Below are positions 29,743-39,905 of a stretch of 64,000 bases of DNA, in pieces. Both the position numbers and the translations under genes were made by a program. The notes beneath the pieces are model-generated. The model ran no database searches. It saw only the letters and a program-made list of their open reading frames with translations, and was not told where the DNA came from. Origin of the DNA: Candidatus Saccharimonadia bacterium (GTDB lineage Bacteria > Patescibacteriota > Saccharimonadia > UBA4664); NCBI GenBank assembly GCA_035479295.1, contig DATIIV010000020.1:10027-74026 (forward strand), given 5' to 3'. Position 1 is the stretch's first letter. The number at the start of each line of letters is the position of its first letter.

Positions 29743-30738
29743 ATGGATAAGCACGATCGCCGCACCATTATCCGCGTCTCGCTGGCCTCGCTCATTCTGA
29801 TGCTGGGCGGCACGGTTGGCTTTATGTTGACCGCTGGATTGGCCCCTGCCCAAGCCTTTTATGAGACAGTAATGATCCTGCTAACGCACTTTGACCACTA
29901 CAGTTTCCCCGATGGCGGCTCGCGCGTTTTGGTAATTGTGTTAATTCTGAGCTCGTATGCGTTGATTGCCTATTTGCTTAAGCTCTTTGCGGAAAGTATC
30001 ATGGGCTTAAGTGGTAATGTACGGAAACTTCGGGTGAAAGCTAAAGTTGATAAATTAAGCGAGCATTATATTGTGTGCGGCTTGGGGCGGGTAGGCTCGC
30101 AGGTGGCGCGCGAGATGCACCAAGAGGGAGTGTCGTTTGTGGCGCTCGATCGTGATGCGGCCAAAGTTGAAGAGGCGCTGGCCGCCGGCTATTTGGCGCT
30201 GCAGCTCGATAGTAGTCAAGAGGAGGCGCTGGTGGCGGCTGGCATTGAGCGCGCTAGTGGCTTGGTAGCCTGCCTTAGCGAAGACTCGCTGAACTTATTT
30301 GTGACGCTGGCGGCGCGGTCGCTCAACCCGCATCTGTACATTGTGGCTCGAGCCAATCAGCCGGCCAATGAGGTGAAGCTAAAGCGGGCTGGGGCCGACC
30401 GGGTGGCTATGCCGTATCGCATTGGCGGGTATCATATGGCATCGATGGCGCTGCGACCGAACGTGGTCGATTACATGGATATTGTGTCGGGTAAGGGCGG
30501 TACGGCCGATCTGGAGGTTGAGGAGATGGTGGTGGGGGAGCGGTCGCGGCTGGCGGGGCATCATCTGGGCAAGTCGCTGGCCGAGGGCGAGATTGGCGCC
30601 ACCGTGATCGCCATTAACGGCGTGGACGGGACGAGCCGGGTGCGGCCGACCGGCAAGGAGATGATTTATCCGGGCGACCGGCTGATTATTTTGGGCTCTA
30701 AACGTGATTTAACGGACGCTTCGGCGCTGATTCGATGA
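29743..30738 (+). CDS. potassium channel protein with TrkA-N/TrkA-C (RCK) domains
   Basis: Two TM helices, then HYIVCGLGRVGSQVA Rossmann (RCK/TrkA-N) and a C-terminal TrkA-C-like domain. Confidence 0.75.
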   Translation: MDKHDRRTIIRVSLASLILMLGGTVGFMLTAGLAPAQAFYETVMILLTHFDHYSFPDGGSRVLVIVLILSSYALIAYLLKLFAESIMGLSGNVRKLRVKAKVDKLSEHYIVCGLGRVGSQVAREMHQEGVSFVALDRDAAKVEEALAAGYLALQLDSSQEEALVAAGIERASGLVACLSEDSLNLFVTLAARSLNPHLYIVARANQPANEVKLKRAGADRVAMPYRIGGYHMASMALRPNVVDYMDIVSGKGGTADLEVEEMVVGERSRLAGHHLGKSLAEGEIGATVIAINGVDGTSRVRPTGKEMIYPGDRLIILGSKRDLTDASALIR

Positions 30739-33211: not shown

Positions 33212-33286
33212 GCCGACGTAGCTCAATGGTAGAGCAACGGTTTTGTAAACCGTTGGTTGGGGGTTCAATTCCTCTCGTCGGCTCCA
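33212..33286 (+). tRNA. tRNA-Thr (anticodon TGT), CCA encoded
   Basis: Cloverleaf GCCGACG/CGTCGGC acceptor stem, anticodon loop TTTGTAA, T-arm GGTTCAATTCC. Confidence 0.85.
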
Positions 33287-33335
33287 GAATTTATTTACTC
33301 ACACCGATCTCTTTGTTTTTGGTATAGTTAAACGT

Positions 33336-34088
33336 ATGAAGAATATTCTTATCACTGGCGTATCCAAAGGTATTGGCCGTACGCTGGCTCATCATTTTCA
33401 CGGCCTTGGTTATACTATTTTTGGTGGCTATAAATGGTCTGATGCGTATAAAGAAGAACAAGCCTTAGCAGAAAGCCTAAAAGCCGAGTTGCCAAACCTA
33501 ACGCTCCTACCCTTTGACCTGGCTGACAGAGAACTGCTAGACCAACTGATTCGGCGCATGAAGGGCGTTCAGCTTGCTGCCATAGTGAATAACGCTGGAG
33601 AGTTTATCCCGAATAATTTTGCTCAGTTTAGCCCCGATACCTGGGATCGGAGCATCGCTGTCAATATGACCGCCCCGCTTTTGCTTGTTTTTGGGCTTCG
33701 CGATAATCTAACAAGCAACGCGAGCATCGTTAATATCGCCAGCACTGACGCATATTACGCTGCGTACGACGATATCGGTTATGCTGCAAGCAAAGCAGGA
33801 CTTATTAGTGTCACCAAAAGCTTGGCGGCCGCGCTTGCAAGCCGGAACATTCGCGTTAATGCCATCGCGCCAGGCTGGGTAGATACCGAGATGGCGGAAA
33901 ATGCGGCTGTTAACGAGTTTGCGCACTTTCAAACTCCCTTAGGTAGAAATGCAACGACACAAGAGATAGCCGGTGTAGTCGAATTTCTCGTCTCCTCCAA
34001 GTCATCTTTCATTAACGCTGCGGTCATTAATGCAGATGGCGGCTATTCGAGCGTCGACTACGTGGTAAAAAAAGAGGCAGAAGGTTAG
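33336..34088 (+). CDS. SDR family oxidoreductase (short-chain dehydrogenase)
   Basis: TGVSKGIGR, NNAG and YAASKAG catalytic Tyr/Lys motifs. The gene is clearly lower in GC (~48%) than its surroundings. Confidence 0.85.
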   Translation: MKNILITGVSKGIGRTLAHHFHGLGYTIFGGYKWSDAYKEEQALAESLKAELPNLTLLPFDLADRELLDQLIRRMKGVQLAAIVNNAGEFIPNNFAQFSPDTWDRSIAVNMTAPLLLVFGLRDNLTSNASIVNIASTDAYYAAYDDIGYAASKAGLISVTKSLAAALASRNIRVNAIAPGWVDTEMAENAAVNEFAHFQTPLGRNATTQEIAGVVEFLVSSKSSFINAAVINADGGYSSVDYVVKKEAEG

Positions 34089-34142
34089 GCAAATTGCTGC
34101 CGGTTTTGTGGTAGCGGCCGTATTTCGAGCTATAATGATTCC

Positions 34143-35135
34143 ATGACGATCTTTGCCTCGGCCGAGGCCTTTCAAGCTAAATTCCGCGCTGGCCTAGCCG
34201 CTACCTTGGCTCTTCCCGACGTGACGCCCGGCCAGCTGGTGCTGGTGCTGGCCAACGCCATCATGCTGGGCGACGAGCACCTGGTTGAGCAGGTGCGACT
34301 CCTGGCCGAGCCATGGCTAGCCAAGATTCCGGAGACGATGCCGGAATCGGCCGTCGTCGAAGATGTGCAGGTGCTGCGGCTGGCGCTACTGGCTGGTGAT
34401 CCCTTGGCTCTATCGCAGCGTCGTACGACGGCCGCCGGCTGGCAGATTCAGCTCAATCGGCTGCGGGGATTTCGGCCACATCGCGCCGCCGGCAGCCGCG
34501 CCACCACGCTGCATCGACCGTTCGACTCGGCCGGCTTCTCGTTTGAGCGCGTGCCGCATGAGGCCTACGCTCATGTTGATTTTTGTGGCCAGTCCGTCGC
34601 CTTATTCTTTAATAAATACCCGTTTGAGCCCTACCATACCGTAGTGGTGCCGGATGTGGCTGGTCGCCATCCGCAGATTCTGCGTCAGTCAGACCATGAA
34701 CTAGCCTGGGAGCTGCAGACTGCTCTGGCGCCGATCCTGCCCAACGTGGCCACGGGCTACAATGCCCTGGGCACCTTTGCCTCGGTCAACCATCTGCATT
34801 TTCAGACCGTTATCAGCGATCAAAATCTGCCGCTGATGCATCTACCGGAGCTCTCAGCCTACCCGATCTCCGTCCGTCAGTACCACACTAGTGCCGCCGC
34901 CTGGCACCAGATTGATGAGCTACAGCAGGCCAACCAGCCGTTTAACCTGGTGTACGCGCCCGGCCGTGTCATTGTTATCCCGCGCCGATTCCAGGGCAGC
35001 TACGAGCAGGCCGATTGGGTGAGCGGCTTTGCCTGGTACGAGCTGGCCGGTAGCTTTATCGTCTCAGACGAGGCCCAGTATCACCGGCTCACCGATGCCG
35101 CCATTCTGACCCAGCTCCGGGCGGCGACTGGTTAG
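34143..35135 (+). CDS. HIT-superfamily nucleotide-sugar/dinucleotide phosphorylase-like protein (GDP-hexose phosphorylase / Ap4A phosphorylase-like)
   Basis: FNKYPFEPYHTVVVP... and a SVNHLHFQ (H-x-H-x-Q) variant HIT motif. Confidence 0.5.
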   Translation: MTIFASAEAFQAKFRAGLAATLALPDVTPGQLVLVLANAIMLGDEHLVEQVRLLAEPWLAKIPETMPESAVVEDVQVLRLALLAGDPLALSQRRTTAAGWQIQLNRLRGFRPHRAAGSRATTLHRPFDSAGFSFERVPHEAYAHVDFCGQSVALFFNKYPFEPYHTVVVPDVAGRHPQILRQSDHELAWELQTALAPILPNVATGYNALGTFASVNHLHFQTVISDQNLPLMHLPELSAYPISVRQYHTSAAAWHQIDELQQANQPFNLVYAPGRVIVIPRRFQGSYEQADWVSGFAWYELAGSFIVSDEAQYHRLTDAAILTQLRAATG

Positions 35136-35179
35136 GTCTTGCCTTGCCGGCCCTCTAACGGTACAATAATCAAGTTCAA

Positions 35180-35265
35180 GCCGGGTTACTCAAGTGGCCA
35201 ACGAGGGCTGACTGTAAATCAGCTGGCATTAGCCTTCGGGAGTTCGAATCTCTCACCCGGCACCA
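35180..35265 (+). tRNA. tRNA-Tyr (anticodon GTA), long variable arm, CCA encoded
   Basis: Acceptor stem GCCGGGT/ACCCGGC, anticodon loop CTGTAAA, class-II extra arm. Confidence 0.85.
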
Positions 35266-35388
35266 GGAATTATTTTTGCTTAGTCAAAGTAAAATGGCGC
35301 CACACGTTATGTATGGGTTAGCTCAATGGTTGCTAATACTTACTTCTTATGCTTATCTTAAAGAAGTAGGAGCTAATGTTAACCCAAT

Positions 35389-36531
35389 ATGAGTATCTCA
35401 AATAGTGCCGCCTCAACTCTAACCAATCTGCCGTCGCCTACCGAAGCGCGACTGCCGGCGGGCATGAGTGTCCTCGATGTAATTATCTTTGCTGCCGCCC
35501 TCGCCTCTGATCCGCGCGCCATCGATGCTTCGCTCAATAAAGTTCGCGCTATCACGGCCAGTTCTAGCGCCGGTGATCTGAGCGACCAAGATCGGCGGAC
35601 GCTTGATAGCGTATACAACGACCTAGAGACGTACCTGGCGGAAAAGGAGCCATTGCGCGCTCTCACCAGACAGTCCATTCGCCAGCGAATTTATGATTAT
35701 ACCCAAAAGCGGCCATCGCAGAGTCTGCGCCGGCCCCTAATGATTATTTGGGCGGCCATCATTGTGATGACGGCGCTGCCAATTATATTGCCGCTTCCGG
35801 CGGGTACGACCGCGGCTCGGCCAGTGATTGCCGTGGTGCTATTTCTGACGACGATTAATGCTGGCGCGGCCTGGCTGTTCTGGTCGGCGCGCAAGAACTT
35901 TCGCGATGAGCTTAGGCAAGTCTATGTACCGATCTCGCTCGGCATTGTTCTGTTGGGTACGAGTTTATTTCAGGTGCCGGTGATGATTATTCTTGGCAGT
36001 CCCACCGTCTTGTTGTGGTTTCGTTACGTCACCGCGAGCATCCCGGTCCTTATCGTGGTTACGCTCATTTATGTTGGTATCTGCCGATTCGTCAAATTTA
36101 GCAATCTCACCAGCCGACTTACCAAGCTCAATGTTCTCGTTCTCAGCGCGCTAGTGCTTGTGTTGCTTGCCGCGTTCCTGCCCCATGTGGCCTCAACCGC
36201 TCCCTTATGGATGCATCTGGTTTCGCTCCTCATCCTGGTAAGCGGTACCGTAATAGCCGGCTTTACTGTGGTATTGATTAGTCGGATGCGGTCGCGTTTG
36301 AGTCTCGTGTATTGGCGGCCGCTAGGCTGGCTCATGAGCGCCGTGGTGCTTTTAGGCATCAACTTTGTGCAGTTCATTATTATTCAGCTGGCTCTGCCGC
36401 CCACTAGTTTTTATGCGAGCCGGGGCTTCTCGGCGCTACCACTCCTCATTACCGGCTTTCTCATGCTTAAGGCTGGAGCGGCGTTTAAGCGCTTCGATGT
36501 TCCAATTACAAAGACAAGGCTGAATGGCTGA
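35389..36531 (+). CDS. hypothetical polytopic membrane protein (~8 TM) with ~100-aa soluble N-terminus
   Basis: Hydropathy visible in the translation; no known motif. Confidence 0.45.
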   Translation: MSISNSAASTLTNLPSPTEARLPAGMSVLDVIIFAAALASDPRAIDASLNKVRAITASSSAGDLSDQDRRTLDSVYNDLETYLAEKEPLRALTRQSIRQRIYDYTQKRPSQSLRRPLMIIWAAIIVMTALPIILPLPAGTTAARPVIAVVLFLTTINAGAAWLFWSARKNFRDELRQVYVPISLGIVLLGTSLFQVPVMIILGSPTVLLWFRYVTASIPVLIVVTLIYVGICRFVKFSNLTSRLTKLNVLVLSALVLVLLAAFLPHVASTAPLWMHLVSLLILVSGTVIAGFTVVLISRMRSRLSLVYWRPLGWLMSAVVLLGINFVQFIIIQLALPPTSFYASRGFSALPLLITGFLMLKAGAAFKRFDVPITKTRLNG

Positions 36532-36631
36532 TCCTGCCACTAAGCAAATAATACAGCTTAAAAAGCCCCACAAATAGTTAAGGAGCCGGATCGACCATCG
36601 CGCGATCCGGCTCCTTGATTTCTGCGGCTAG

Positions 36632-37111
36632 TTAGTCTCGCGGTTGCCGCCGCCGCTGCTCGCTGGGGCTAAAGTCCCAGCACATAGCAGCCGCATACAG
36701 CGGAGACTCGAATACGAGCAACATGAGCACCAGCCGGGCCAAAGAACTGTAGGTGTTAAGCTCCTGCGGGTAGGCGGTGAGCCAGAGCCATCCCACCACA
36801 AAGATAAGAAGGCTAAGCGTCCATACCACCGACGCTATCCCGCGCCATGGGTAGGGCCAGGTTGCGATCAGGTGCCAGATCAGGGCGCCATGCAGGGCCA
36901 GCAAGACCATAGCGCTTATGGCTAGGCCGGCTAGCGGGTAGCCTTGGAAATGCGCTAGCACGGGCTCATGTTGAGTGAGGGCTGGCATATTGTCCAACAC
37001 AATGCAACATAGCGAGCTGGCTGCGGCTCCTAGGGCCCACAGCACAAGATATTTGCAGACTCTCCCCCAGAATCGGTCTGATTCCGAGCTTTGCTTGGCT
37101 TCATCGTACAT
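36632..37111 (-). CDS. hypothetical membrane protein (4 TM)
   Basis: Hydrophobic helices; 159 aa. Confidence 0.4.
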   Translation of the reverse strand: MYDEAKQSSESDRFWGRVCKYLVLWALGAAASSLCCIVLDNMPALTQHEPVLAHFQGYPLAGLAISAMVLLALHGALIWHLIATWPYPWRGIASVVWTLSLLIFVVGWLWLTAYPQELNTYSSLARLVLMLLVFESPLYAAAMCWDFSPSEQRRRQPRD

Positions 37112-37505
37112 ACCTGCGCCTCTCTCGGCTCATAATCATAAAAGCACCCACCCCAACAGTAGATGCTTCTATGATCTTTAAGGCAAGCGAGTGGTTAGTA
37201 TTGGTCTCGGCCCGTGCTGCCAGTTGCAAATGGAGCGGCCGGCCACTGTCTTCCACTGAGCTAGGTTCTTCTCCGAGCTCCGACGCCACATACCCAGGGC
37301 GCCGAACCTTGCGAGATATACCAAAGCCCGAAGACTAGGTTACTGAAATAGCCGTGAGCGTAACTCGGCAGAATATCCAAAAAAACGGGCTATCTGGAGA
37401 GTATTTTTTGGCCAGGCCCAAGCAACATGACGTTAGCGCGTCTAAAAGTCACCCAGCGCCTTGTCCAAGCTGCGCTTTTATGCTATTGTTTTATGGTTAG
37501 ATTTT

Positions 37506-37580
<75 letters not shown>

Positions 37581-38064: not shown

Positions 38065-38139
38065 AGGGGAGTAGCTCAGCTGGCAGAGCACCGGTCTCCA
38101 AAACCGGGTGTCGCAGGTTCGATCCCTGTCTCCCCTGCC
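38065..38139 (+). tRNA. tRNA-Trp (anticodon CCA)
   Basis: Acceptor stem AGGGGAG/CTCCCCT, anticodon loop CTCCAAA, close to E. coli tRNA-Trp. Confidence 0.85.
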
Positions 38140-38432
38140 ATGAATTTATAGTTTTGTCAAGTTGCGTCTTTGGCCGCGATTTTGTTTTTGCTAGCATAAC
38201 TTCTCGCTTGTGACATAATTGATCACATGCAAGAGCCCACTCTCGAAGAGATCGAATATCTGATGACGAAATTAGCAATTCCCGTTTTATCGAATCGAGC
38301 GAATTTCATTCCCGCCGGGCGAGCCGCGTCGGTGCGAGAATGATGCCGAACACTCATGGAGCCTAGCCTTTCTGGCATGCAGCTTGGCTCCTGAGAGAGA
38401 CAAGAACTTAGATACCGGCAAAATAGCTTAAT

Positions 38433-39905
38433 TTGCGGTCGTCCCTGACTTGGTGGAAGTCTTCGCCGGTGATACCGCACCCTGGCGGGACGAGCAAATG
38501 CTTAACTCGAAAGAGCAGCGTGAGGCAGAATCGCTGGAGCTTATTAAGGCGCTTTCCATGGATTGCTCAAACCATTGGTGAATACGAATCGCGCGGTAGC
38601 AATAAAGCAAAATTCGTGTGGGCCGTAGGCAAGATTCTTCCACTCCTGACGCGTAAGCTTGAACAGGGGCGCTATTACATTGAGAATGGCATTACCAAAC
38701 AACGCTTTGACGATAGCCTAGTCGATCATAGACGGAAAGCCCATGCTCATCCAAAAATTAGTAGCTACTATGAACAGCTGCGGGAAATTTTCGAAACCCA
38801 TCAAGAACGACTCCTAGAGAGGCTTGTGATGACAAAACCAAAAGTCGCAGTCATCGTTGATGGCCCGGACCCCGACAATTACGTCTGCATTTTGGCCGCG
38901 CTCAGCTCGCTGATGTGCTACGAAGTTGTGGCCGTCATCATGACCGGACGCCCGGTATCAGCGAGCGCGGGCGCGCTGCCTTATGTACTCAATCCGTATG
39001 CCAGCAGGGCGGTGCGGCGGGATAACGCTTTGCACGCGAAGGGCATCCTCATGCGGCACGGCGGCGAACGGATCCTCGTGTTTGAGGGCGGCAGAGCGCC
39101 ATTCTCGACGATTCCACACGACAAGCACATCCACGAGCGAGTTACGGATGTGTACGACGACGCACACGCCGGCCACATGCCGGCCGGCGACATCGACGAC
39201 GCCGTGAGTTTCCTCGCGGGGCTGGACGGACCGATTCACGTGATCTGCGGTGGCCCGATGACGGATCTGGCGTACTTGATGCGCCAGCCGATGCTGGAAG
39301 GCAAGCTGGGGATCGTCACGGCGCAACTGGGGATGTTTAACCTCGGGACCGTGAAGACGATCGCGGGCGGGCGGCGACAGTTCAATGTCCTGGCTGATGT
39401 CGGTGCAGCCTACGATGTGCTGACGCACCTTTCTAGCCCGTTCTACCTGGTCCCGACCGACATCACCAAGCACGATGATCACGCGTTCCATAGCGTTGAT
39501 GAGTTGGGTATCCTGTCCCGGTCGAAGGCCTTCGACGAAGTGACGATGATGTACGACCTGGCTTGGCCGCATATGTGGGGTAAGCTGGGAATCCCGGCTC
39601 ACGTTCACGACTTCCACCCGGCCGAGCTGATGGACCTGCTGCTGCGCGAAGACCCGATGCATCACGTCCGACCCTCGCAGGTAGGGCGTGATGTGATCGG
39701 TAGGTACAGCATTTCACCGGTCGGGATCAAGCATGTGCCTCATCTCTTGTTCGAGAAGCACCGCTGGGGCGAAATCGATCTTGGCCTCGCCAACCCGCAA
39801 CTGCCGTCCCGGTTTCTCGTAGACGGCTGCGACACAAGCGGCCACCGCCGAATTCTGGCGGCCACGCTCAACGCCGTAGGCAGTTCTCAGCTTCAGATGA
39901 CATAA
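38433..39905 (+). CDS. hypothetical protein (possibly starting internally at MTKPKVAVIVDG, nt 38829); weak nucleoside-hydrolase-like N-terminal Asp cluster
   Basis: 490-aa ORF. The first ~130 codons are in a lower-GC stretch. VIVDGPDPDNY Asp-rich motif; otherwise no firm family. Confidence 0.4.
   Translation: MRSSLTWWKSSPVIPHPGGTSKCLTRKSSVRQNRWSLLRRFPWIAQTIGEYESRGSNKAKFVWAVGKILPLLTRKLEQGRYYIENGITKQRFDDSLVDHRRKAHAHPKISSYYEQLREIFETHQERLLERLVMTKPKVAVIVDGPDPDNYVCILAALSSLMCYEVVAVIMTGRPVSASAGALPYVLNPYASRAVRRDNALHAKGILMRHGGERILVFEGGRAPFSTIPHDKHIHERVTDVYDDAHAGHMPAGDIDDAVSFLAGLDGPIHVICGGPMTDLAYLMRQPMLEGKLGIVTAQLGMFNLGTVKTIAGGRRQFNVLADVGAAYDVLTHLSSPFYLVPTDITKHDDHAFHSVDELGILSRSKAFDEVTMMYDLAWPHMWGKLGIPAHVHDFHPAELMDLLLREDPMHHVRPSQVGRDVIGRYSISPVGIKHVPHLLFEKHRWGEIDLGLANPQLPSRFLVDGCDTSGHRRILAATLNAVGSSQLQMT

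Follow-up and report, generated by a model that had tools for sequence, protein, structure and literature searches.

How two protein-coding genes came to lie between the tRNA-Thr(tgt) and tRNA-Tyr(gta) genes of a Candidatus Saccharimonadia bacterium, and whether they belong together, is the question raised by the 64,000-nucleotide (64-kb) stretch of DNA that was analyzed here and is referred to throughout as the window. The first gene (33336-34088) encodes a short-chain dehydrogenase/reductase (SDR) and the second (34143-35135) a protein of the histidine triad (HIT) type, termed the HIT-like protein. An initial annotation had taken the pair to be a low-GC cargo of foreign origin that may serve in the salvage or modification of nucleotide sugars or dinucleotides. 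Both tRNAs and both open reading frames (ORFs) do lie where it had placed them (ARAGORN, Rfam and an ORF check). The interval is best explained, with a probability of about 0.7, by two genes without a functional link, each acquired and transcribed on its own, namely an old HIT-like gene and an SDR cassette that arrived later, and the case is built on synteny, composition, homology and fold. The features of the interval are as follows.

33212..33286, + strand: tRNA-Thr, anticodon UGU, the left anchor of the site (ARAGORN; Rfam tRNA, 72.8 bits)
33287..33307, + strand: 21-nt junction between the 3′ end of tRNA-Thr and the start of donor-type SDR cassette homology (the blastn match to locus L012 begins at 33308)
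33308..34094, + strand: inserted SDR cassette, consisting of a T-run, the extended −10 box TGGTATAGT, the SDR coding sequence (CDS) and 6 nt past the stop (homology to loci L012 and L013)
33320-33328, + strand: extended −10 box TGGTATAGT, 7 nt before the SDR ATG
33336..34088, + strand: classical SDR, 250 aa (Pfam adh_short_C2, 2e-46)
34131..34136, + strand: TATAAT −10 box of a predicted leaderless-type start, 6 nt before the HIT-like ATG (sequence inspection)
34143..35135, + strand: GDPGP1/VTC2-like HIT protein of the GalT branch, 330 aa, a predicted nucleotidyl-phosphorylase with H219 as putative nucleophile
34449..34484, + strand: QLNRLRGFRPHR motif, residues 103-114 (invariant columns in the family alignment)
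34608..34652, + strand: FNKYPFEPYHTVVVP, residues 156-170, which includes N157, the equivalent of Apa2 N92
34782..34805, + strand: SVNHLHFQ, residues 214-221, with S214 and the modified HIT motif H217-x-H219-x-Q221
35139..35167, + strand: promoter-like TTGCCT-17-TACAAT directly 5′ of tRNA-Tyr (consensus scan)
35180..35265, + strand: tRNA-Tyr, anticodon GUA, the right anchor of the site (ARAGORN; Rfam)

The HIT-like gene is an old resident of the inter-tRNA site and not a recent cargo. In all eight Saccharimonadia loci compared (L003, L006, L008, L016, L017, L021, L061 and the window) tRNA-Thr(tgt) lies directly 5′ of the gene, and tRNA-Tyr lies directly 3′ of it in six; in L021 and L061 the tRNA-Thr(tgt) is immediately 5′ and there is no tRNA-Tyr within the fetched locus. 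The shared order is rpsI - TrkA - RluD - HolB - TPR - tRNA-Thr(tgt) - HIT-like - tRNA-Tyr - ... - PspC - rpmG - tRNA-Trp. The HIT-like proteins of these relatives are 38-50% identical to that of the window and the flanking proteins 27-80% identical, and in a neighbor-joining (NJ) tree seven Saccharimonadia HIT-like proteins form one clade that is sister to proteobacterial sequences, its two sub-clades matching the split seen in the divergence of HolB and RluD. The GC content of the gene equals that of its host in every locus checked (the window, L003, L006, L009 and L011), and any transfers must therefore have been old or between close relatives. No tRNA is near the HIT-like gene in ten proteobacterial or archaeal loci.

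The site also exists in an empty form. A pattern scan of metagenomes identified 11 loci in which tRNA-Thr(tgt) and an identical tRNA-Tyr are 8-11 nt apart, in line with the view of the initial annotation that this tRNA pair is normally compact, and 10 of the 11 have recognizable cluster-flanking genes, HolB and/or TPR upstream, and PspC together with L33 in L100. Some compact loci are as near to the window as is the nearest locus carrying the HIT-like gene (62% identity in HolB and 66% in RluD for L105), and on a host-marker tree of RluD, HolB and TPR the HIT-carrying and compact loci are interleaved. Since equally related genomes have the two tRNAs 8-11 nt apart and are interleaved with the others, we infer that the HIT-like gene was lost or gained several times at this one site, and its distribution is that of an old presence/absence polymorphism. 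A promoter-like CTTGCC-17-TACAAT element before tRNA-Tyr is conserved in five HIT-carrying loci, and the compact spacers have no room for it. The tRNA-Tyr itself shows no difference in its 86 nt (100% identity) among five lineages (the window, L003, L006, L016 and L017) while neighboring proteins are only about 40-75% identical, and it constitutes a long anchor of perfect homology on one side of the variable sites.

An alternative to a single ancient insertion followed by multiple losses is that the compact pair is ancestral and that a HIT-like cassette, made up of promoter, CDS and tRNA-Tyr promoter, spread several times by homologous recombination in the flanking tRNAs. This would agree with the interleaving on the host-marker tree and with the identical tRNA-Tyr genes, which would serve as recombination anchors across lineages, and the spacer between tRNA-Tyr and tRNA-Thr(ggt) is likewise highly variable, from 6 nt to 5 kb. 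The usual arrangement of thrU-tyrU in bacteria is, moreover, the compact one. However, the two deep HIT sub-clades match host divergence and the gene has the GC content of each host, as noted above, and the trees behind the question are NJ trees that carry no support values. Repeated spread is possible, though we lean away from it, and the HIT-like gene would rather be an old occupant with largely vertical inheritance in Saccharimonadia and repeated loss or gain.

The SDR gene has a different history, being a later cassette than the HIT-like gene and one that probably came from a lower-GC Saccharimonadia lineage. It is an ordinary SDR with a complete set of motifs (TGVSKGIG at residues 7-14, NNAG at 85-88, N110, S136 and YAASK at 149-153, with Y149 and K153), and it scores below every NCBIfam equivalog cut-off, including those for FabG (139-150 bits at best versus cut-offs of 222-298); a generic FabG-like match to it is the sole match in PHROGs. 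Its closest homologs, at 70-86% identity, are from Saccharimonadia/Saccharimonadales with host GC contents of 44-55%. At the inter-tRNA site the SDR is missing from all 17 related loci, and its orthologs are found in unrelated contexts that lack the HIT-like gene. The window sequence from 33308 to 34094 is 80.1% identical over 787 nt to positions 9975-10759 of L012, whose host GC is 0.49, and L013 shows 72% nucleotide identity; the closest ortholog, of the L012 type, is 86% identical at the amino acid level. Because the homology to L012 begins 28 nt before the SDR ATG and ends 6 nt after the stop, spanning only promoter and CDS and starting 21 nt after tRNA-Thr, the unit can be described as a promoter-plus-CDS cassette, and the TGnTATAGT box TGGTATAGT is common to the window, L012 and L013. 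Synteny, that is, the absence from 17 related loci together with the cassette homology to L012, hence supports the proposal in the initial annotation that the SDR was inserted next to a tRNA.

The usual marks of integration are missing. The direct repeat of the tRNA-Thr 3′ end that had been suggested as a check was not found, as a 25-mer with up to 3 mismatches gave no second copy and a 16-mer gave one unrelated match with 3 mismatches 5 kb upstream, where 0.77 are expected by chance, and no integrase domain was present in the ORFs scanned between 31546 and 39905. A 12/14 match resembling an attachment (att) site within the SDR CDS (33986-33999) was rejected as a coding-sequence coincidence, since a boundary there would remove about 30 codons from the 3′ end of a gene that is homologous to L012 through its stop. 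The cassette, with its own extended −10 promoter and its CDS, would thus have entered 21 nt after the 3′ end of tRNA-Thr without an integrase or att duplication. In L012 (9869-10001) and L013 (9870-10001) the SDR lies 56 nt downstream of tRNA-His(gtg), which resembles the position of the window's SDR next to a tRNA, and a hairpin with a T-run, similar to an intrinsic terminator, is located between this tRNA and the SDR promoter. The next gene in L012, which encodes a NUDIX protein, has the same TGGTATAGT box.

Composition separates the two genes as well. The window has 68 non-overlapping ORFs of 100 aa or more, and of these the SDR gene is the lowest both in GC content (0.483) and in GC content at third codon positions (GC3, 0.478), the other 67 having means of 0.595 (sd 0.041) and 0.703 (sd 0.079), respectively, which corresponds to z values of −2.7 for GC and −2.86 for GC3. 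The dip to about 48% GC that was pointed out in the initial annotation is therefore real, the flanks being above 0.60. The HIT-like gene (GC 0.616, GC3 0.716) is typical of the genome or slightly high, and hence it is not low-GC, as the notion of a two-gene cargo would have it; the anomaly concerns one gene and not two.

It might be argued that the low GC is a property of the SDR gene itself, in which case the gene would be old and either relocated within the genome or lost from relatives. SDR orthologs are indeed below the mean GC3 of their hosts in all five loci, the window included (z −1.26 to −2.86, with the lowest or near-lowest rank in each), and the GC of the gene stays within 0.42-0.48 in hosts ranging from 0.44 to 0.58. 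The initial annotation had itself named such a shared dip as a sign of gene-specific composition and not of transfer, and the dip is shared by all five loci, but its depth differs (−0.08 to −0.22). A constant bias does not explain why three hosts show an offset of about −0.08 to −0.09 but L014 one of −0.14 and the window one of −0.22, a pattern that is expected from incomplete amelioration after transfer from a lower-GC relative. Nor does it sit well with the absence of the SDR at this site from the 17 related loci, including ones with 62-66% identity in HolB and RluD, or with the values of 86% (amino acid) and 80% (nucleotide) to an ortholog in a 49%-GC contig, which far exceed the 45-50% that the HIT-like gene shows in the nearest relatives. 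A purely gene-specific origin of the dip is accordingly unlikely and the later arrival of the SDR is preferred, with the proviso that, since the orthologs share the dip, composition alone is weaker evidence for transfer than the initial annotation had assumed and synteny is the stronger.

Each gene appears to have its own promoter. A TATAGT box lies at 33323-33328, 7 nt before the SDR ATG, and the TATAAT box of the HIT-like gene (34131-34136) is 6 nt before its ATG; in the orthologs of the HIT-like gene in L003 and L006 a −10 box is found 6 and 8 nt before the start. With a separate −10 box 6-7 nt upstream of each ATG, the two genes look like independent transcription units, predicted to be of the leaderless type, and not like an operon driven by the tRNA. 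In the window more generally, TATAAT-like boxes 6-8 nt before the start are seen at 29743, 31633, 33336, 34143, 40774 (− strand) and 41103, which are first-in-operon genes, and TAnnnT at −16 to −9 occurs in 8 of 24 genes, where roughly 1.7 are expected, the internal genes of operons having Shine-Dalgarno sequences of the GGAG type. This suggests that leaderless transcription may be widespread in this Saccharimonadia genome.

The single-cargo explanation, in which the SDR and the HIT-like protein arrived at the tRNA as one low-GC foreign unit and act together in nucleotide-sugar or dinucleotide salvage or modification, can now be assessed. The two genes are adjacent and on the same strand, between tRNAs that are 8-11 nt apart in relatives, and it is chemically conceivable that an SDR would act on the sugar freed by a nucleoside diphosphate (NDP)-sugar phosphorylase. 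However, only the SDR is low in GC, in seven other lineages the HIT-like gene holds the site with no SDR beside it, 89 other loci have no SDR in the 4-6 kb around the HIT-like gene, SDR orthologs occur elsewhere without the HIT-like gene, each gene has its own predicted promoter, and neither an integrase nor an att repeat was found. The histories differ, since the HIT-like gene is old and ameliorated across lineages whose proteins are 38-50% identical and the SDR is at the site in this lineage only. Both the foreign two-gene unit and the functional pairing, which the 89 loci and the unrelated contexts of the SDR orthologs speak against, are therefore very improbable. On the preferred reading of two unlinked genes, three states are superimposed at this locus. 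Some relatives have only the compact tRNA pair, others also have the old, compositionally native GDPGP1-like HIT gene, and the window adds a recent SDR cassette to it.

What, then, is the HIT-like protein? The 330-aa ORF matches NCBI 'hypothetical protein VLI05_04545' at 100% identity, and GCA_964451975.1 encodes it as well. The initial annotation had recognized in it the peptides FNKYPFEPYHTVVVP and SVNHLHFQ, which are present at the expected positions of the ORF, and had interpreted them as the variant H-x-H-x-Q signature of GDP-hexose phosphorylases and Ap4A (diadenosine tetraphosphate) phosphorylases; this interpretation is supported by a precomputed match to GDPGP1_N, a profile match to VTC2 and the predicted Apa2-like fold. 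GDPGP1_N was found in precomputed Pfam annotation (E at most 1e-5). Our own Pfam and NCBIfam scans gave nothing above threshold, but the Pfam copy scanned is without PF26216, PF26217 and the older DUF4922, leaves VTC2 itself unmatched, and is therefore uninformative on the GDPGP1-like family; a single-sequence phmmer search of the PDB returned only noise. When a family profile built from 26 members (alignment A1) was compared with Arabidopsis VTC2 (Q8RWE8, GDP-L-galactose phosphorylase 1, confirmed by exact look-up), hhalign gave a probability of 99% and E 2.5e-18 over 231 columns (query residues 99-327). With hmmsearch on a PDB-sized scale the profile scored 65 bits against VTC2 (E 4.6e-17) and 23 bits against the Ap4A phosphorylase Apa2 (E 3e-4). 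As judged from sequence, the closest characterized relatives of the ORF are the GDP-L-galactose/GDP-D-glucose phosphorylases. The Ap4A phosphorylase families ATP_transf (PF09830, 14.9 bits versus a cut-off of 23.5) and, in two family members, Ap4A_phos_N (PF19327, 13.5-14.2 bits versus 23.1) stayed below threshold.

The AlphaFold2 (AF2) model of the protein (predicted local distance difference test score, pLDDT, 91.2; predicted template modeling score, pTM, 0.91) consists of a four-helix domain at the N-terminus (about residues 1-90) and, after it, a HIT1/HIT2 core of two lobes. Its nearest solved structure is Apa2 and the predicted fold is Apa2-like, although this structural vote is biased because no solved GDPGP1 structure was among the fold-search matches. 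The active site is described for the branch as a motif HXHXQ-phi-phi whose second His is the nucleophile of a ping-pong reaction via a nucleotidyl-His intermediate, and in Apa2 N92 and N148 recognize the substrate, S156 binds the alpha-phosphate and H159, H161 and Q163 form the motif (bioRxiv 10.64898/2026.09.13.751320). The HIT-like protein has H217-L-H219-F-Q221-T-V, which fits H-x-H-x-Q-phi-phi, and in the alignment (PDB chain numbering offset 8) the six Apa2 residues N92/N148/S156/H159/H161/Q163 correspond to N157/N207/S214/H217/H219/Q221. Five of these residues (N157, N207, S214, H217 and H219) do not vary among the 26 family members and the sixth, Q221, is conserved to at least 90%. H219 occupies the alignment position of Apa2 H161 and also that of His238, the second His in the motif of VTC2. 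The QLNRLRGFRPHR motif, in which N105, R108, R111, P112 and R114 are invariant in the family, aligns with VTC2 QLNEGRHLKKRP and is probably phosphate-binding. On the evidence of sequence and model, this would be a catalytically intact HIT enzyme of the GalT branch, GDPGP1/VTC2-like in sequence and Apa2-like in fold.

By analogy with homologs that are 13-26% identical, catalysis would be phosphorolysis through a nucleoside monophosphate (NMP)-His219 intermediate. His219 would attack the alpha-phosphate of a nucleoside-diphosphate-X, which may be an NDP-hexose, or Ap4A or adenosine 5′-phosphosulfate (APS), a covalent NMP-His intermediate would be formed, and inorganic phosphate would resolve it with release of NDP. 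Gln221, standing at the position of the third HIT histidine, would favor phosphorolysis over hydrolysis; GDP-L-galactose phosphorylase (GGP/VTC2) has been described as a HIT enzyme short of one His, which favors phosphate over water as acceptor (PMC11066809).

Whether the substrate is a GDP-hexose can be questioned, as the protein might instead be an Ap4A/Np4N (dinucleoside tetraphosphate) phosphorylase or an APS:phosphate adenylyltransferase (APAT, 'ADP-sulfurylase'). Aminoacyl-tRNA synthetases produce Ap4A as a by-product, and a location in a tRNA cluster would be consistent with this. The sub-threshold matches to ATP_transf and Ap4A_phos_N point in this direction, the sequence NKYPF-P-H is closer to NKFPVVPEH of Apa2 than to NVSPIEYGH of VTC2, and the family is carried by 496 species, mostly sulfur- or iron-oxidizing Gamma- and Betaproteobacteria. 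A step from APS to ADP is part of indirect sulfite oxidation in such organisms (PMC8232776), and the GalT branch is divided into GalT, Ap4A phosphorylase and APAT groups (bioRxiv 10.64898/2026.09.13.751320). On the other side, the profile prefers VTC2 to Apa2 by 65 to 23 bits on one scale, the block GYN(S/A)LGxxAS(V/I)NHLHFQ is almost identical to that of VTC2, Pfam and UniRef file the family as GDPGP1-like, and the fold vote for Apa2 carries the bias mentioned above. Against an APAT in particular, no apr or sat genes are among the recurrent neighbors of the family. In addition, Saccharimonadia are, to our knowledge, not sulfur oxidizers. We consider an Ap4A phosphorylase or APAT a serious but minor candidate and continue to place the protein with the GDPGP1/VTC2 type.

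The HIT-like protein shares with VTC2/VTC5 and GDPGP1 (PF26217/PF26216) the H-x-H-x-Q motif, the nearly identical block around it, an LN..R...RP motif, homology over both HIT lobes and the precomputed GDPGP1_N match. It differs in being only about 26% identical, in the NKYPF-P-H sequence, and in that the bacterial proteins, of about 330-360 aa, have their own N-terminal four-helix domain, which does not align with the VTC2 N-terminus; also, we know of no ascorbate pathway in the organisms that carry the gene, unlike the setting of VTC2. With Apa2 (PDB 4i5t/4i5v/4i5w) it has in common the predicted two-lobed HIT1/HIT2 core and all six active site residues listed above, but the identity is 13-15%, the Pfam Ap4A families reach 14-15 bits versus cut-offs of 23, and the profile reaches 23 bits. 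The APAT ('ADP-sulfurylase') of Thiobacillus denitrificans, reportedly described by Bruser and coworkers in 2000 (J Biol Chem 275:1691) and compared here by description only, is counted as one of the three groups of GalT-branch HXHXQ enzymes, and the HIT-like family is centered on sulfur-oxidizing proteobacteria; however, no source names any family member APAT. Class I GalT and the ADP-glucose phosphorylase At5g18200 also have the HXHXQ motif and a HIT core, and a ping-pong reaction via nucleotidyl-His is used there, but the HIT-like protein has no Pfam GalT match. Apa2 itself is monomeric and class I GalT enzymes are obligate dimers with a Zn site (bioRxiv 10.64898/2026.09.13.751320).

Several points weigh against the overall interpretation or parts of it. 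The number and direction of gains and losses of the HIT-like gene are not settled by trees that are unbootstrapped NJ trees on short markers. Part of the SDR GC dip is gene-specific and not a transfer signal, since SDR orthologs are under the host mean GC3 in every host (z −1.3 to −2.4), and with 64 kb of the genome in view an intragenomic origin of the SDR copy is possible. The promoters and leaderless starts are predictions. For the HIT-like protein, GDPGP1_C is only 'faint' in the same precomputed Pfam annotation that contains GDPGP1_N, VTC2 has nothing equivalent to the N-terminal helical domain, and the substrate and even the reaction type are deduced from homologs that are 13-26% identical.

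The family to which the HIT-like protein belongs is large. In an exhaustive search, 1378 representatives at 50% identity matched the profile with E at most 1e-3, and 188 of these had E at most 1e-30; the 496 species with a relative come from a scan of one genome per species. The hosts are overwhelmingly sulfur- or iron-oxidizing Gamma- and Betaproteobacteria (e.g., Thiodiazotropha, Sedimenticolaceae, Chromatiales, Ectothiorhodospiraceae, tubeworm symbionts, Gallionellaceae and Sulfuricella, and lucinid symbionts too), together with a few Saccharimonadia, while other members are in Chloroflexota/Anaerolineales and one is on a contig labeled Altiarchaeales. The expectation of the initial annotation that such proteins are rarely annotated in bacteria proved correct, as all sources use 'hypothetical protein', the generic COG name 'Ap4A HIT family hydrolase' or the UniRef name 'GDPGP1-like N-terminal domain-containing protein', and neither the literature nor source names yielded a paper on bacterial family members or on a bacterial GDP-glucose phosphorylase, or an assayed bacterial member. 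The neighbors of the gene in 80 loci look like lineage synteny and give no functional hint, none being present in more than 24 loci and the recurrent ones (about 20-24) being PCuAC-like, c-type cytochrome, GGDEF and Exo_endo_phos proteins. An unusual architecture is seen in P0282 (Logan contig, 3426 aa), where the HIT core is an internal domain (residues 1790-2054, E 8e-41 to the family profile).

As a site, the interval resembles tRNA-associated genomic islands in that accessory genes lie directly 3′ of a tRNA, the site varies among relatives and one gene is anomalous in GC. Unlike such islands it has no integrase in the ORFs scanned, no duplicated tRNA 3′ end and no phage or defense content according to PADLOC, which gave no match for four islet proteins, and PHROGs, and each insert is one cassette of promoter plus CDS, about 0.8-1.1 kb long.

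Further tRNAs in the window are tRNA-Thr(ggt) at 37506-37580 and tRNA-Trp at 38065-38140 (ARAGORN, Rfam), and the spacer from tRNA-Tyr to tRNA-Thr(ggt) (35266-37505, 2.2 kb in the window) is a variable islet too. It measures 6 nt in L106, 80 nt in L016 and 147 nt in L097 and L103, with longer forms of 1.6-2.4 kb in L006 and L003 and 4-5 kb in L101 and L105. In the window it holds a 380-aa ORF (35389-36531, + strand) that looks multi-pass and a 159-aa ORF (36632-37111, − strand), neither of which has a Pfam, NCBIfam, PADLOC or PHROG match; a search of 17 related loci with the 380-aa ORF gave no homolog. Twelve nucleotides of the D-arm of tRNA-Thr (TAGCTCAATGGT, 33219-33230) recur exactly at 35319-35330 and are followed by an 8-bp AT-rich hairpin, TACTTCTT...AAGAAGTA (35319-35372 region). 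A pseudo-tRNA at 35319-35330 was rejected, with no ARAGORN or Rfam call and a tRNA alignment that fails beyond the 12-mer, and the copy is probably due to chance. After tRNA-Trp, an ORF of 461-490 aa at 38433-39905 has in its middle part a sub-threshold match to inosine-uridine nucleoside hydrolase (32.4 bits versus a cut-off of 34.2) and may be a divergent nucleoside hydrolase of relevance to nucleotide salvage.

A bolder interpretation is that the bacterial GDPGP1-like clade, which comprises about 190 to several hundred clusters at 50% identity, is a functionally new nucleotidyl-phosphorylase that acts on neither a GDP-hexose nor canonical Ap4A. Its substrate may then be APS, another NDP-X or an aminoacyl-tRNA synthetase by-product, and the persistent embedding between tRNA-Thr and tRNA-Tyr in Saccharimonadia would reflect a link to translation. 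In a wider sense, the inter-tRNA spacers of this cluster may be integrase-free capture sites for leaderless single-gene cassettes, via recombination in near-identical tRNA genes. All of this is speculative and, in our judgment, quite a long shot.

Nothing in this locus overturns current understanding. The HIT-like gene is a new member of a recognized but biochemically uncharacterized bacterial branch, and it shows that the GDPGP1/VTC2-type HIT phosphorylase, which is known experimentally only from eukaryotes, has a sizeable uncharacterized bacterial sister clade with an active site that appears intact. Because of this active site and the skew of the clade to sulfur and iron oxidizers plus a lineage of the candidate phyla radiation (CPR), it is a reasonable target for enzyme discovery, and an annotation of 'hypothetical' or 'Ap4A hydrolase' can be corrected to GDPGP1-like HIT phosphorylase. 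The locus also provides a small and clean case of a tRNA cluster that has gained genes layer by layer in reduced CPR genomes, with no integrase involved and with all of the states present in extant relatives, and it serves as a warning that adjacency at such hotspots should not be taken as functional coupling.

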